In this document: piece by piece, positions 4,432 to 36,722 of the stretch
Position numbering within the stretch: the first letter of the stretch is position 1
How the letters are laid out: each line of letters opens with the position of its first letter
Source of the DNA: Treponema sp.
GTDB taxonomy: Bacteria; Spirochaetota; Spirochaetia; Treponematales; Treponemataceae
Assembly: GCA_045615645.1 (NCBI GenBank)
Contig: JAZLFF010000082.1
Location: 45,588-109,587 of the forward strand
DNA length: 64,000 nt
Direction: 5' to 3'
Notes under the pieces: model-generated
What the model was told of the DNA's origin: nothing
What the model saw: only the letters and a program-made list of their open reading frames with translations
Databases searched by the model: none
Program-made: the position numbers and the translations under genes

Positions 4432-4809
4432 ATGACTAGTTCAATTGGAAATTTGAATGCTTATTCTTACAGTTCTTCTTTCGCAAATGGTGGAATGGGA
4501 AAACTTTATGTTCCTGTTAGTAAAACTGCATTACTTTATTCAAACTTCGAACACGTTACAGGTATTACAGCTAAAGAAGGTCAGCAAGGAGTTTCAATTA
4601 CAAAAATCAGAATATTAAACTCTCTTATAGAAAGACTTTCCGCAATAAAAAATGAGCCTAAAGAATCTATCACAGACATAAGTGATGATCAGGCTCAAAC
4701 TTTAATTGAAAATTATCAAAAACAAATACAGGCTGCAGTAAAACAAACTCCTTACCTACTTTCAGGAGCTCAACCACAGCCTGGCGACTTATTTGCAATA
4801 GACGCTTAA
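4432..4809 (+). CDS. Hypothetical protein
   Basis: 125 aa ORF with an AGAGG RBS-like site upstream; no recognised motif. Confidence 0.65.
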   Translation: MTSSIGNLNAYSYSSSFANGGMGKLYVPVSKTALLYSNFEHVTGITAKEGQQGVSITKIRILNSLIERLSAIKNEPKESITDISDDQAQTLIENYQKQIQAAVKQTPYLLSGAQPQPGDLFAIDA

Positions 4810-6128
4810 CTCCACAAAAACCACAGCAATCCAGCCGCAGCAGCAGTAGTTATAATTGTAAACGGCGCTCCAATTTTTAAGAACCCTTTAAAAGTAATTG
4901 GATGTTCTTCTTTTTTTAAGATTCCCATTGCAACTACATTTGCTGAAGCTCCAAACGGAGTTAAGTTTCCTCCAAGACAAGAGCCAACTAAAAGTGCAAA
5001 CATAAACAATTCTTTTTGAATTCCCATATTTTGAGCAAGCCCGCCTGCAACCGGAAGCATAACAATAATGTAAGGAACATTATCTACAAATCCGGAAATT
5101 AATACTGAGAATACAAGAATCAATATAAATCCTGCAAGTTTATTTCCTTTTGTTATTACCCCAAGCCATTTTGCAAAATCAGACAAAATGCCAGTTTCGC
5201 TGATTGCTCCAACTACAATGAAAATTCCAATTAAAAATGCAATAGTTTCCCAATCAAGTCCTTTTACAAGCTCCCAAGCATCCTTTGTACTTTTCTTCTG
5301 ATTTTTTATGTACCAAAGCAAACCAATTAAACCAAGCGCAAAAACAAAGCAGCCAGAACCGTATCCCAATTCTGTACTTAAAAAGGAAATTCCGGCAAGA
5401 CCAAAAATCATTATAAGTAAAAGCCACAATGGAAAATATGAAATAACCGGTTCTTTTTCAACAATTGCTTTTTCACGTACTCGACCAAATATACAATAGA
5501 AGAAAATACATCCGGCAATCATTCCCATTTGAACAATAAAGAAGATTGATAAACGTCCTTGATGAACAAAGAAATCATTAAAATTGTAACCTGCATAACT
5601 AGCAAAAATCATACTAGGAGGATCACCAACTAGTGTTGCAGTTCCTTCCAAATTAGACATTACTGCAAGACCAATCATAAACGGAACAGGATCCAAATCC
5701 AGTTTTTTAGACAAAGCCAAAGCAATTGGTGCCATTACAAGAACTGTAGCAACATTTTCTACAAAAATCGAAATAATTCCAGTCATTGCAAGAATAAGTA
5801 CAACTGCAATTCCAGTATTTGGAGAATGTTCTACAATAACATCCGCAATTCGAGCAGGAACTTTTGAATAGATAAAAAGTGCAGCAATAACCATACTGCC
5901 GACATAAATCATCAAAATATTCCAGTTTATTAATTCAAAGAAAATATGATAAAAAAGCGCACCAGCAGAGTCTGTATTTTCAAAAACGCGACCTGCAAAC
6001 ACAAAACCAAGTACAACTGTAACAAGAGCCGCTACAGTCGTCATCAGAACTTTCTTGTCCTGAAAAAGTATAACCAGAAGGTACATAATCAGGGCAAGCG
6101 CAAGAATAATCCATTTAATTTCAAACAT
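4806..6128 (-). CDS. ArsB/NhaD/SLC13 (ion transporter superfamily) permease
   Basis: Multiple TM segments; ENVAT, GTATLVGDPP, VDNVP and LGGNLTPFGASAN motifs. Confidence 0.88.
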   Translation of the reverse strand: MFEIKWIILALALIMYLLVILFQDKKVLMTTVAALVTVVLGFVFAGRVFENTDSAGALFYHIFFELINWNILMIYVGSMVIAALFIYSKVPARIADVIVEHSPNTGIAVVLILAMTGIISIFVENVATVLVMAPIALALSKKLDLDPVPFMIGLAVMSNLEGTATLVGDPPSMIFASYAGYNFNDFFVHQGRLSIFFIVQMGMIAGCIFFYCIFGRVREKAIVEKEPVISYFPLWLLLIMIFGLAGISFLSTELGYGSGCFVFALGLIGLLWYIKNQKKSTKDAWELVKGLDWETIAFLIGIFIVVGAISETGILSDFAKWLGVITKGNKLAGFILILVFSVLISGFVDNVPYIIVMLPVAGGLAQNMGIQKELFMFALLVGSCLGGNLTPFGASANVVAMGILKKEEHPITFKGFLKIGAPFTIITTAAAAGLLWFLWS

Positions 6129-15604: not shown

Positions 15605-15722
15605 GAGGTCCGTCCCCTTTTTCACATTTTTATGAAATTGAGGTCCGTCCCCTTTTTCACATTTTCATGAAAAAGGGGACGGACCTATTTTTCATATTTT
15701 TGTGAAATTAGGGACGGACCTC
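15605..15722. repeat. REP/BIME-like array, family A cluster 1
   Basis: Two GAGGTCCGTCCCC and two inverted GGGACGGACCT motifs at 35-36 bp period, separated by TTTCACATTTTTATGAAA-type cores. Confidence 0.9.
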
Positions 15723-24580: not shown

Positions 24581-24662
24581 GAGGTCGGGGTCTTTTTTCA
24601 TAAAAATGTGAAAAAGGGGACGGACCTGTATTTCATAAAAATGTGAAAAAGGGGACGGACCT
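24581..24662. repeat. REP/BIME-like array, family A cluster 2
   Basis: tttcataaaaatgtgaaaaaggggacggacct twice, plus a degenerate left arm. Confidence 0.9.
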
Positions 24663-24702
24663 ATGTAAGGCCTCTGACGGCTTTTGTTACATTTAATATT
24701 TA

Positions 24703-32839: not shown

Positions 32840-33592
32840 TTAAAATTCTAAAGTTCCGATTACTGTTGTATCATCATCATCAGAATCGGAACTTTTTTTA
32901 ATTTTTTTACTTTTCTTAAAACGAGGACTTTCGGCATCAATTTCCGCAATACGTTCAGCCTTATTTAATAATCCGCCCTCTGAAGTTCCAGAAGATTTTC
33001 TAGCAGCTTTAGCTTTCGGAGAAGCAAGAAACGCAAACAAACTTCCACAAAGTCCACCAGCAATTCCAATAAAAATTCCAACTACCCCATTAGGATTTTT
33101 CACAAAAATCTCGCGCACAATAAACAAAATAAAAACAAGTACAAAACTGCTAGGTATTTTCTTTTTAGAAAACGACAAAAACGAATTCAAAAAAATCATC
33201 ATAAAGACAATTGGAGTACAACCAACAATACTGTTTTTACAAAAGCAAGCATTCAAAACACCGGAAAACAGCGCCGACACCAGCATCATCAATCCGATAA
33301 TAACAGAACCGTACCTTTCTTCCATAGACGGCCCCAAAAGTAAAATAAAAATCAAATTAGTAATTAATACTTCCCAAGAAACCGCACTAAACGAATACAT
33401 TACTAACCGCACATAAGACAAAACCTTATTCGGCACAAACAGAAAATCTCCACCAGCCGCAGGAGAACTCATAAACAAAGCGGTCCACTTACCTTTAACA
33501 ACGAACGAATCGAGTACAAATAATAAAATGGAAATCATTGAAAAAGTAACTGTAACCGGAGCATCAATATCAATATTAATCTTCTTTTTCAT
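32840..33592 (-). CDS. Rhomboid-fold membrane protein lacking catalytic Ser/His
   Basis: NLIFILLLGPSMEERYG rhomboid pattern; GCTP in place of GASG; TM6 has no His; TGATG overlap with upstream gene. Confidence 0.75.
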   Translation of the reverse strand: MKKKINIDIDAPVTVTFSMISILLFVLDSFVVKGKWTALFMSSPAAGGDFLFVPNKVLSYVRLVMYSFSAVSWEVLITNLIFILLLGPSMEERYGSVIIGLMMLVSALFSGVLNACFCKNSIVGCTPIVFMMIFLNSFLSFSKKKIPSSFVLVFILFIVREIFVKNPNGVVGIFIGIAGGLCGSLFAFLASPKAKAARKSSGTSEGGLLNKAERIAEIDAESPRFKKSKKIKKSSDSDDDDTTVIGTLEF

Positions 33593-34113
33593 CACACACC
33601 AATCTCTATTTCATTACAAAGAGCTTCATACAAAATAGCTTTATCTTTGTTTGCATCACGTACAGTTTTTGTAAGACGTTTTGCAAGAACGAGTAAAGCT
33701 CTGTATCCCAAAACTGGTTCTTTCTCGCACAATTCCAGAAAAGTTTTTCCCGAAAGAGCAAGCGCAGAACATTCCGTTTTTGCAGTAACAGTTGCAGAAC
33801 GAGTATCATTACTAATAATTGCCATTTCACCAAAGAAAACGTTCATTTCGGAATTAAGCGTTGCAAGAGCAATTACATCACCCGCCGGCGTCTGTCGTGT
33901 AATTAAAACCTCACCAGAATACAAAATGTAAAAAACATCTCCAGTTTCGCCTTCTTTAATAATTGCTTCTCCAGCCTTAAATTTTTCAACAGAAAGACAA
34001 TTATACACTGTTTTCAAAATGCGCTTATCTTCTTCTCCTTCAGGATTAAAAGCTTCAAAAATCGGAATCTTAACTAATTTTGGTAAAACCTGTTCAAATG
34101 TATCCATTATCAT
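33592..34113 (-). CDS. Stand-alone cyclic-nucleotide-binding domain protein
   Basis: IIKEGETGDVFYILYSGEV and FFGEMAI...RSATVTA phosphate-binding cassette; no HTH; start may be 34107. Confidence 0.9.
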   Translation of the reverse strand: MIMDTFEQVLPKLVKIPIFEAFNPEGEEDKRILKTVYNCLSVEKFKAGEAIIKEGETGDVFYILYSGEVLITRQTPAGDVIALATLNSEMNVFFGEMAIISNDTRSATVTAKTECSALALSGKTFLELCEKEPVLGYRALLVLAKRLTKTVRDANKDKAILYEALCNEIEIGV

Positions 34114-34121
34114 CCTCCGGA

Positions 34122-35324
34122 TTATGCCTTTATCTGCTTACCACGAACATAAATTGCTTTAGAGTTCTTAGGAACAATAAAATCGTTTGGCGGCGTAAAC
34201 ATTGGTTCGTTACTAATCATCGTTTTTACCTTTTGAAGTCCGCCAATAATATCGTTCATATTCGGATTTTTCTGTGCCTCGCGGATAGCTTCCTTCCTAC
34301 GCAAGTGAAAATTTCCTGAATTAAGTAAAAGGCCTACAAGAATACCGTTCTGTTTTCGGATATTCCAGAAATGATCTTTCAATTCCTTATAACTTTTACC
34401 AATAAATTCATCAGGGATTTCACCAATCAAAATGCCAGAATCAGCTTCATCACTGATTAACGACCTAATAACGTTACTATAGCCCATTCCGCTGGAAGCT
34501 GTTGCTAAAAGACTTCGTTCGTATTCCTGCGTCAAAATTATTTCATCGCAGTGTGCCATTTTTAAATGCTTTTCAAACTTTTCGCTGATTAATTCCGCAG
34601 CAACGTAAATACCACGATTCATGCTTTCCATTGTAAGAACGGCAAGGACAGTTCGTGAATCAATTTCGAGATTTGAATATTTCTTAGACTTATCAGAAAT
34701 AATTAAAGCACGTGAAGCTGTTTTTATAAACGCACGGTTTAATGTAGTTTCGTCAGTAAAATCACCGGCAACAAAGTTTAAATCCTTATACTTTTTCTGA
34801 GCTCTTAACTGTTCCATTTGCTCAGGTGCTTCATTAATTAAAACAATCATATCTGTAGATATATCCGGATTAGATATAAGTACATTTTCCAAAATATTTT
34901 CAAAGCCCGGTCTCCAACCGCAAAGTAAAAAATGTCCCTGCATAGTATTCAACTTCTTTAACCCCTTATCATTTTTCATTTGAACATCAACAAACCAAGA
35001 TGCAATTTTCGCTGTAATACAACTAAAAAGCACCAACCCCGTCATAAGCATTGTCCATCCAGCAATTCGTCCAGGAAGAGATTCGCAGACAAACTCAAAA
35101 TAGTTTGCAAAAACGGCAACGCACATAAACCAGAACGTATCGAACTTAGTAACAATTCCACTTCCAGTTTTTGTTTCTGCGTTATAAACAACAATACACG
35201 CAATAAAAATCAGGACAACAATTCCAAGGCACAAAAGTACAAGCGGATCGCTTAAAGTAAGCCGAAGCCGTTTGAAAATCGAAACCTTCTTTCTGTCCTT
35301 TTTATCATTTTTTTTCGTTTCCAT
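34122..35324 (-). CDS. 2TM channel-like protein with RCK/TrkA domain, non-canonical filter (subunit B)
   Basis: TM1-pore helix-TM2 (DTFW...PGR), HFLLCGW, GDFTDETTL RCK; FANYFE at the filter position. Confidence 0.85.
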   Translation of the reverse strand: METKKNDKKDRKKVSIFKRLRLTLSDPLVLLCLGIVVLIFIACIVVYNAETKTGSGIVTKFDTFWFMCVAVFANYFEFVCESLPGRIAGWTMLMTGLVLFSCITAKIASWFVDVQMKNDKGLKKLNTMQGHFLLCGWRPGFENILENVLISNPDISTDMIVLINEAPEQMEQLRAQKKYKDLNFVAGDFTDETTLNRAFIKTASRALIISDKSKKYSNLEIDSRTVLAVLTMESMNRGIYVAAELISEKFEKHLKMAHCDEIILTQEYERSLLATASSGMGYSNVIRSLISDEADSGILIGEIPDEFIGKSYKELKDHFWNIRKQNGILVGLLLNSGNFHLRRKEAIREAQKNPNMNDIIGGLQKVKTMISNEPMFTPPNDFIVPKNSKAIYVRGKQIKA

Positions 35325-35346
35325 GATAAACCAGCTCTAAACCTCA

Positions 35347-36438
35347 TTAGTGATTTGCACAAATCAAAATAGATTTAGCATTTTTTGGAATTATAAAATC
35401 ATCAGACGGAGTTAATAATGTCTCATGATTTTCATCCAGCAGTAAACCGACCAAAACTTCATCTTTTTCTGTAAAGAAACGGTCTAATAAAGTTTTGTAA
35501 GATTTTCCAATATAAGCCATAGGAATTTCATCAATAATAATACCAGATTCTGCATCATCAGAAATAAGTGACTTAATTACGTTGCTATAGCCTTTTCCAC
35601 TTGAAGCAGTTGCTAAAAGACTGTGTTCATATTCCTGGGTAAGCAAAACTTCATCACAATGTGCAAGTTGCAAATGTTCTTCAAACTTTTTATCTATAAT
35701 TTCTGCCGCAACATATACATCCGGATTTATATTCTTCATTGTAAGGACAGCCAGAACAGTCTGCGAATCAGTTTCCATTTCTGAACGAGTTTTTGACGCA
35801 TCCGAAATAACGAGAACACGTTTTGCTTTTTCTATGAATGCTCGCTTTAATGTTTCTGCATCAGCAAAATCACCGGCTACATAATTTATATCCTTAAACT
35901 GAAGCTCAGAACGAAGCTGTTCCATTTGCTCGGCAGGAGCTTCATTTACCATTACAATTTGATCTGTAGAAATATCAGGATTAGACTGCATAACAGCTTC
36001 CAGAATCTTATCAAAACCTGTTCTCCATCCGCAAATAATAAAATGATCTTTCATACCTCTTAGTTTTTTTAACCCCTTATTTCCTTTCATTAACATATTC
36101 ATGAATCCAGAAGTGACTCTACCAGTTACAAAACTGAATATAATCATTCCAAAAAGCAGTAACACAAGTGATGCAAATCGTCCTGGAATGGATTTTACGT
36201 AATAGTCAAAATATGCAGCGGAAACTGCAACAATTGTATGCCAGACTGTATCAAACCATCCGACAATTCCACTATCAGTTCTACCACCAGATTCTGTTTC
36301 GTGAACTACATAAGTTGCCACCGTAATTGCAATAACAACGACTATTCCAACGTATGTAAATGGATTTGAAAAAAGCCTTTTTAGCTTTCGATGATATCTA
36401 CTTACTTTCTCATTTTCCGATTTTACTTTCTTAGTCAT
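35347..36438 (-). CDS. 2TM channel-like protein with RCK/TrkA domain, non-canonical filter (subunit A)
   Basis: DTVW...PGR pore region, HFIICGW, GDFADAETL RCK; SAAYFD at the filter position; paralogue of the neighbouring gene. Confidence 0.85.
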   Translation of the reverse strand: MTKKVKSENEKVSRYHRKLKRLFSNPFTYVGIVVVIAITVATYVVHETESGGRTDSGIVGWFDTVWHTIVAVSAAYFDYYVKSIPGRFASLVLLLFGMIIFSFVTGRVTSGFMNMLMKGNKGLKKLRGMKDHFIICGWRTGFDKILEAVMQSNPDISTDQIVMVNEAPAEQMEQLRSELQFKDINYVAGDFADAETLKRAFIEKAKRVLVISDASKTRSEMETDSQTVLAVLTMKNINPDVYVAAEIIDKKFEEHLQLAHCDEVLLTQEYEHSLLATASSGKGYSNVIKSLISDDAESGIIIDEIPMAYIGKSYKTLLDRFFTEKDEVLVGLLLDENHETLLTPSDDFIIPKNAKSILICANH

Positions 36439-36499: not shown

Positions 36500-36583
36500 G
36501 AGGTCCGTCCCCTTTTTCACATTTTTATGAAATTGGGGACGGTTCTCTGTTTCACAAAAATATGAAATTGGGGACGGACCTCT
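36500..36583. repeat. REP/BIME-like array, family A cluster 3
   Basis: gaggtccgtcccc...ggggacggttct...ggggacggacctc. Confidence 0.9.
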
Positions 36584-36637
36584 GAATAACAAAATAGTTA
36601 AATTCTTGCTATACAAAGAATTAACATTTCAGACTAT

Positions 36638-36722
36638 TAGAGGTCCGTCCCTCTTTTCACATTTTCATGAAAAACAGGTCCGTCCCCTTTTTCACATTTT
36701 CATGAAAAAGGGGACGGACCTC
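36638..36722. repeat. REP/BIME-like array, family A cluster 4
   Basis: gaggtccgtccc...aggtccgtcccc...ggggacggacctc. Confidence 0.9.

Follow-up and report, generated by a model that had tools for sequence, protein, structure and literature searches.

Two paralogous RCK channel genes from Treponema with a shortened, glycine-free pore loop in place of the K+ channel signature

Introduction

The two glycines of the K+ channel selectivity filter are among the most conserved residues in biology. In NaK and the CNG/HCN channels, which belong to the same superfamily, changes in the signature leave fewer ion sites and do away with K+ selectivity, with at least one filter glycine being kept (TVGDG, TIGE, CIGYG), and we know of no channel of this type in which an aromatic residue replaces the outer glycine. 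Here we describe two adjacent genes, hereafter A and B, found in a 64,000-nucleotide stretch of DNA from a gut Treponema sp. (GenBank assembly GCA_045615645.1, contig JAZLFF010000082.1, positions 45,588 to 109,587 of the forward strand). This whole stretch is referred to as the window, and coordinates given without a locus prefix are its own. Both genes code for putative channel subunits with two transmembrane (TM) helices and, unlike NaK and CNG/HCN, neither of them keeps any filter glycine.

The closest described system is MthK (PDB 1LNQ, 3RBZ, 6OLY), which is the best match of A and B in both sequence and fold and shares with them, in each subunit, a two-TM pore domain with a pore helix, a linker and a single RCK domain opening with CGW, together with the hinge glycine. 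It differs in its TVGYGD filter, the loop of A and B being shorter by one residue and glycine-free, in its Ca2+ triad, which A and B keep only partly, and in genetic layout, as the locus described here has two paralogous subunit genes and a separate gene for a cyclic-nucleotide-binding (CNB) protein. In MloK1 and SthK a 6-TM channel that has the canonical filter carries a fused CNB domain; a K+-channel-type pore coupled with a CNB domain is thus common to both cases, but here the CNB domain is a separate protein of 173 amino acids (aa) encoded beside a 2-TM RCK channel, the link between them being predicted from adjacency. The plant nuclear channels CASTOR, POLLUX and DMI1 are, like A and B, RCK-regulated pore-loop channels without TVGYG, and they do conduct ions, CASTOR being Ca2+-selective with an essential filter Asp (PMC6697748). 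They differ in having the AD-S/A-GNHA filter, four TM segments, two tandem RCK domains and a eukaryotic origin (PMC6697748), whereas A and B have two TM segments and one RCK domain. No close pore sequence relationship of A and B to these plant channels was evident, and the match of the A C-lobe to Castor_Poll_mid is weak (E 0.033, below the cut-off). In the searchable literature, no mention of the motif or of this Treponema family was found with the motif strings or with terms for RCK or cyclic-nucleotide channels of Treponema and spirochaetes.

Results

Architecture of the two channel subunits

Gene A (35347..36438, minus strand) codes for a 363-aa protein with the first TM helix (M1) at residues 26-49, the pore helix at 61-74, the pore loop at 75-83, the inner helix (M2) at 84-118 and a single RCK domain at 129-363 (35350..36054, minus strand), and it lacks a C-terminal helix hairpin. 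Gene B (34122..35324, minus strand) starts 22 bp past the A stop codon and codes for a 400-aa paralogue with the same architecture, the two proteins being 50% identical from end to end, apart from a stretch of about 38 residues that only B has. The pore helix and pore loop are encoded at 36190..36258 in A (residues 61-83) and at 35079..35147 in B (residues 60-82), both on the minus strand. At the filter positions A has SAAYFD (36205-36222, minus strand) and B has FANYFE (35094-35111, minus strand), exactly as stated in an earlier sequence-only reading of the window, the other observations of which are also borne out by the translations: both filter glycines are gone, the Tyr and the acidic residue are kept, and the two loops share the pattern A-V-x-A-x-Y-F-[DE]. 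The span from the pore-helix Trp to the Arg following the loop is 22 residues (W66-R87 in A, W65-R86 in B) against 23 in KcsA, as that reading had counted, which fits the one-residue shortening seen in the PDB phmmer and MAFFT alignments.

Both proteins match the Pfam profiles Slo-like_RCK (PF22614; E 3.9e-15 for A and 1.5e-12 for B) and TrkA_N (PF02254; 2.9e-10 for A), with the RCK domain located directly behind the inner helix and opening with C-G-W-[RK]-x-G, not with G-x-G-x-x-G. The Ion_trans_2 profile (PF07885) matches neither A nor B, while canonical relatives do match it. In a phmmer search against the PDB, full-length matches to MthK and BK put the motif on TVGYGD; in the alignment of A with MthK, SAAYFD falls onto TVGYGD with a one-residue gap just before it, and a further match was obtained with the RCK domain of Kch. 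The AlphaFold models built from the family alignment contain helices 26-49, 61-74 and 84-118 and the nine-residue loop 75-83 in A (mean predicted local distance difference test score, pLDDT, 79) and helices 27-50, 60-73 and 83-119 and the loop 74-82 in B (mean pLDDT 86, predicted template-modelling score 0.70). The top Foldseek match is full-length MthK (E 3e-16), with Slo2.2, Slo1 and GsuK coming next. Structure prediction, proposed in the sequence-only reading as a check on the pore-helix architecture, therefore returned an M1/pore helix/re-entrant loop/M2 pore with an MthK-like RCK fold for both subunits.

The T-[VI]-G-[YF]-G signature is absent from A and B, which have neither of its glycines and a loop one residue shorter, while their origin from canonical K+ channels is apparent from the nesting of the variant clade among TT[VI]GYGD orthologues with the same gene order. 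A and B thus descend from and fold like MthK-type K+ channels yet fail the signature that defines them, and neither "potassium channel" nor the "NAD-binding protein" of the public records should be used as an annotation for this family.

Conservation of the variant loop

The search of 5.8 billion protein clusters yielded 338 homologues, and all the named ones among these are Treponema or Spirochaetaceae metagenome-assembled genomes. Pore motifs were read in the 120 homologues listed, one of which is a fragment without the pore; the pattern x-A-[AGN]-Y-[FY]-[DE] is present in all 119 of those with a readable pore. The listed A-type proteins all have [SVI]AAY[FY]D, and the B-type ones have either [FML]A[AG]Y[FY]D or FA[NG]YFE. 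The filter Tyr, the acidic residue closing the signature, the GR motif following the loop, the inner-helix hinge glycine (G97 in A, G96 in B) and the linker Gly122 are invariant in the alignment, in canonical and variant members alike.

Codon comparisons were made between the window and six related loci, in which the proportion of synonymous change (pS) is saturated at about 0.5-0.85. In the paired loci, the proportion of nonsynonymous change (pN) for A and B is 0.04-0.19 in the pore helix, loop and M2 against 0.12-0.30 in the rest of the protein, so that the pore helix, the loop, M2 with its hinge glycine and the M2-RCK linker make up the most constrained part of both subunits. The recurrence of the variant motif is far beyond chance, and the strong conservation of the loop indicates, at the level of sequence comparison, that it is a working alternative pore and not a product of decay. 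The sequence-only reading had suggested a conserved alternative filter from A and B themselves, and it gains support here from a motif near-invariant in more than 100 homologue clusters, a pore more constrained than the remainder of the protein and a predicted pore helix. It had also considered that close homologues retaining TVGYG, together with a randomly varying loop, would speak against this; TT[VI]GYGD is indeed kept by orthologues at 35-47% identity, but random variation of the loop is not seen. A small number of orthologues appear damaged (L019:5494-6727, L022:5185-5898 and the matches in genomes G145 and G009), showing a frameshift into two open reading frames, a truncated open reading frame or an internal TAG, and may be either pseudogenes or assembly errors.

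Origin of the variant filter

A homologue is present in 52 of the 151 sampled genomes of the taxonomic family of the window, and about 30 loci were compared, all counts given here being those of genome samples and not of all genomes. In the orthologues at 35-47% identity TT[VI]GYGD precedes I-T-P, and the stretch from the pore-helix Trp to the Asp has one residue more in the MAFFT alignment; their orthology is backed by the tree and by the downstream gene that they share with the window. The canonical Treponema orthologues (for example loci L014, L015, L020 and L030) share the family, the order of the B-type and CNB genes, the RCK domain and the helix hairpin with the window and differ from it in keeping TT[VI]GYGD-I-T-P and in being single-copy. 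As these more distant orthologues in the same gene order keep the longer canonical loop, the variant is derived and clade-specific. Two single-copy genes in the genus of the window carry TAGYFD and FAGYFD, which are plausible intermediates judging by their motifs.

In the maximum-likelihood tree the variant clade (64 rows, SH-like approximate likelihood-ratio support 97) is located inside the canonical Treponema orthologues, and the A clade (42 rows, support 100) inside variant B. With the pore columns removed, the free topology needs two changes of the filter state; the approximately unbiased test does not reject one common origin for all 65 variant rows (p 0.39), so neither convergence nor reversal is claimed. 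Placed beside the variant clade on a long branch are 527-aa relatives (L018:5418-7001 and L032:5530-7113, represented by P0123) that combine a full 6-TM Ion_trans module, the canonical TVGYGD filter and an RCK domain and likewise have the CNB gene downstream.

B was used as the query in an exhaustive profile-free search of 1.84 billion representatives, which gave 1723 matches. Among the best 150 of these, nearly every pore-bearing protein has T[VTIC]GYGD, and the variant motif is confined to representatives of the Treponema clade. Other degenerate loops occur in a few unrelated lineages among the library representatives. Four RCK-bearing representatives from outside Treponema (P0126, P0177, P0211 and P0270) have quite different degenerate loops, one of them largely deleted; the filter has therefore been lost several times in the superfamily, and bacterial RCK channels with degenerate filters turn up repeatedly.

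The most likely history starts from the canonical filter, after which the loop was shortened and the residues equivalent to Val76 and Gly79 of KcsA were replaced by Ala and Phe, the variant B gene was duplicated, and finally the remaining glycine was lost. In one Treponema sublineage TT[VI]GYGD was remodelled into a loop one residue shorter (Val76 to Ala, Gly79 to Phe or Tyr, and later Gly77 to Ala or Asn), and purifying selection then fixed the new loop.

The A/B pair and the helix hairpin

All A-type genes found, those of nine genomes in the family scan and of four further contigs belonging to deeper A subclades, have a B-type gene immediately downstream, and none was found on its own in the genomes and contigs searched. 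Phylogenetically, A is a later duplicate of a variant B-type gene. The additional block of B forms a helix hairpin in the C-lobe of the RCK domain (residues about 335-372; 34209..34322, minus strand), delimited by the gap in the A/B alignment, the AlphaFold model, where it consists of helices 339-351 and 356-367, and conservation, with many residues invariant in variant and canonical orthologues alike. Since it is conserved in the canonical orthologues too, the hairpin is ancestral and A has lost it; the sequence-only reading was right in noting some extra helical sequence in B that A lacks, which amounts to about 38 residues modelled as a hairpin, although this is not an insert as it was described there.

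The two members of the pair also differ at the pore mouth. In 10 of 10 pairs A has Y[FY]D-x-x-x-[KM], with Lys three residues on (Met in one lineage), which is the state of unpaired B, whereas in 10 of 10 pairs B has FA[NG]YFE-x-x-C-E, with Glu at the Lys position, and a distinctive FMCVAV pore helix. The comparison of paired with unpaired B is the only one in which pN of the pore equals or exceeds that of the rest of the protein, which points to a burst of pore change at the duplication. After this event A kept the ancestral pore-mouth Asp and Lys and lost the hairpin of the RCK C-lobe, and in paired B both residues became Glu. The fixed adjacency, the complementary charges and this apparent subfunctionalisation, with the pore mouth changed in B and the hairpin lost in A, suggest that A and B co-assemble as a heteromeric pore.

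Neighbouring genes

A and B are the first two of four tightly packed minus-strand genes. The CNB protein gene (33592..34113, minus strand; 173 aa, Pfam cNMP_binding 3.3e-21) starts 8 bp past the B stop codon and shares a 4-bp overlap with a rhomboid-like gene (32840..33595, minus strand; 251 aa, Pfam Rhomboid 1.2e-9). In all complete loci examined, canonical or variant, from about ten genera, the B-type gene is directly followed by a CNB gene coding for 162-190 aa. Of 19 orthologues of this gene, 17 have an intact phosphate-binding cassette (FGE...RSA). A canonical lineage represented by complete 2.8-Mb genomes (L014:6940-7512, L033:6606-7148) has the degenerate FGK...HGS in its place, and by its sequence this protein may have lost the ability to bind cyclic nucleotide. 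The genome of the window encodes seven class III cyclase domains, and at locus L047 a 900-aa CHASE2 and class III cyclase gene (L047:1296-3998) ends 3 bp before the variant channel gene. The gene string in that lineage is cyclase, channel, CNB protein and transporter. Control of the channel would be exerted through the RCK domains and the always-adjacent small CNB protein. The predicted complex of the B RCK region (residues 118-400) with the CNB protein scored 0.02, which gives no verdict and is counted neither way.

RNA-library contigs with at least 99% identity cover the rhomboid-like gene, the CNB gene and a 150-bp piece of B; none lies on A, a gap which carries no meaning, as contig coverage is proof neither of transcription nor of its absence.

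The rhomboid-like gene has no homologue in any related channel locus examined, so it was rejected as a part of the conserved module and is regarded as a local neighbour. Its product has GCTP at the expected catalytic GxSG and no His in the last conserved TM segment (IGIAGG), and is probably a pseudoprotease, to judge from these motifs.

A transporter of the CitMHS superfamily follows the CNB gene at distances from 2-3 bp to about 85 bp in three of the five unpaired variant loci, and is absent from the other two and from the paired and canonical loci examined, so that its role as an obligate partner is only partly supported. The genes in question, of the CitMHS/ArsB superfamily, are L045:5702-6826, L047:5703-7037 and L024:3781-5127, two of which are not detectably orthologous. 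The homologue in the window (4806-6128, minus strand) is 65% identical to the L047 protein and is situated 27 kb from the channel genes.

The window also contains a dispersed intergenic repeat with the core GAGGTCCGTCCCC, present in 11 copies against 0 expected (36500-36722, 15605-15722 and 24616-24663). Found in either orientation with a 35-bp spacing, the copies give rise to long hairpins, one of which has a 20-bp stem at 36676-36721, shortly upstream of A, and metagenome contigs break or rearrange at this repeat.

Discussion

The locus is best explained by a tetrameric, RCK-gated pore-loop channel of the MthK kind that has the paralogues A and B as its subunits and does not select K+ in the canonical way, and this reading as a whole has about an even chance of being correct. 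The pore probably still gates, given the conservation of its hinge glycine, M2-RCK linker and RCK domain, and canonical K+ selection is not expected, because the glycines needed for the four-site carbonyl filter are gone. By analogy with characterised channels, permeation would be non-canonical and probably not K+-selective, a proposal that we hold with a confidence balanced between yes and no: the pore would provide a non-selective or otherwise retuned cation path. PMC11251424 describes both glycines as necessary for the four backbone-carbonyl rings facing the pore, reports that substitutions of the inner filter glycine abolish selectivity in BK, GIRK2 and Shaker, and gives about 30-fold lower conduction for KcsA G77A.

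Several points weigh against this reading. KcsA G77A is cited in PMC11251424 as still K+-selective in flux assays, so that glycine loss alone is no proof of lost selectivity, and the pathway could be blocked, not widened, by four Phe or Tyr side chains in place of the outer glycine. Of the MthK Ca2+-site residues, the equivalent of E210 (A E246) is invariant, but that of D184 is Glu in A and Asn in B and is not conserved, and that of E212 is Ile. A tetramer of subunits that each carry a single RCK domain would supply four of the eight in an MthK-type ring. A Met aligned with the internal start M107 of MthK is present in A and B and is not conserved across the family in the MAFFT alignment, so no claim of an MthK-like internal start giving a soluble RCK is made. 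The evidence for the heteromer, in turn, consists of gene order and charge pattern. An obligate A/B heteromer, with a new structure for selectivity and gating, passage of a non-K+ ion (such as Na+, Ca2+, NH4+ or organic cations) and control in trans by the CNB subunit docking on the B hairpin, is a doubtful extension of the scheme.

TrkA/KtrA-type RCK proteins regulate TrkH/KtrB, and by this analogy A and B could be a membrane-anchored RCK/CNB scaffold or a regulator of another transporter, with the pore permanently closed by the aromatic glycine-free loop. This is a lesser but serious possibility, consistent with the loss of both glycines, the bulky Phe or Tyr at the outer-glycine position and the CitMHS-superfamily gene that follows the B-type and CNB genes in the three unpaired variant loci. 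It also agrees with the presence of a TrkH-type K+ system in the genome, owing to which K+ uptake would be independent of A and B. The pattern of constraint, which is strongest in the pore helix, loop, M2, hinge glycine and linker, is hard to explain for a mere anchor, and the transporter neighbour is missing from the paired loci and from two of the five unpaired ones, its homologue in the window being far from the channel genes.

It is distinctly unlikely that the pore is still K+-selective through an unconventional shorter filter, in analogy with the single-glycine P-loops of KtrB, TrkH and HKT. One glycine is indeed kept in unpaired variants and in some paired B proteins (TAGYFD, FAGYFD, MAGYFD, FAGYFE), the signature Tyr and acidic residue are invariant, a search of this 89%-complete genome turned up no canonical K+ channel (PF07885), and the KcsA G77A flux assays cited in PMC11251424 point the same way. 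However, the A-type subunits and the B of the window have no glycine at all, a loop one residue short makes four stacked carbonyl sites impossible in the canonical register, and the equivalent substitutions in BK, GIRK2 and Shaker, as reported in that source, abolish selectivity. Random decay of redundant channel genes is hardly credible, even with the canonical signature gone and the pore no longer recognised by Ion_trans_2, given the intact reading frames in dozens of genomes, the near-invariant motif, a pN that is much smaller than the saturated pS and has its minimum in the pore and, as a weak hint only, the RNA-library contigs over part of B and the CNB and rhomboid-like genes.

What distinguishes this family is the loss of both glycines together with the shortening of the loop, the strong fixation of the result, the traceable intermediates, and the paired subunits with a separate CNB partner. 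Both glycines have been replaced and the loop shortened, and the outcome has been kept under strong selection across many gut Treponema. With the canonical and intermediate forms extant, the family offers a natural stepwise series (TTVGYGD to TAGYFD and FAGYFD to SAAYFD/FANYFE) for studying the conversion of a K+ filter. A probable heteromeric pore-loop channel is unusual for bacteria, as is an RCK channel whose putative cyclic-nucleotide sensor is a partner protein with a gene of its own. For the biology of Treponema, the locus would mark a putative cyclic-nucleotide-linked membrane conductance that differs between host-associated lineages.

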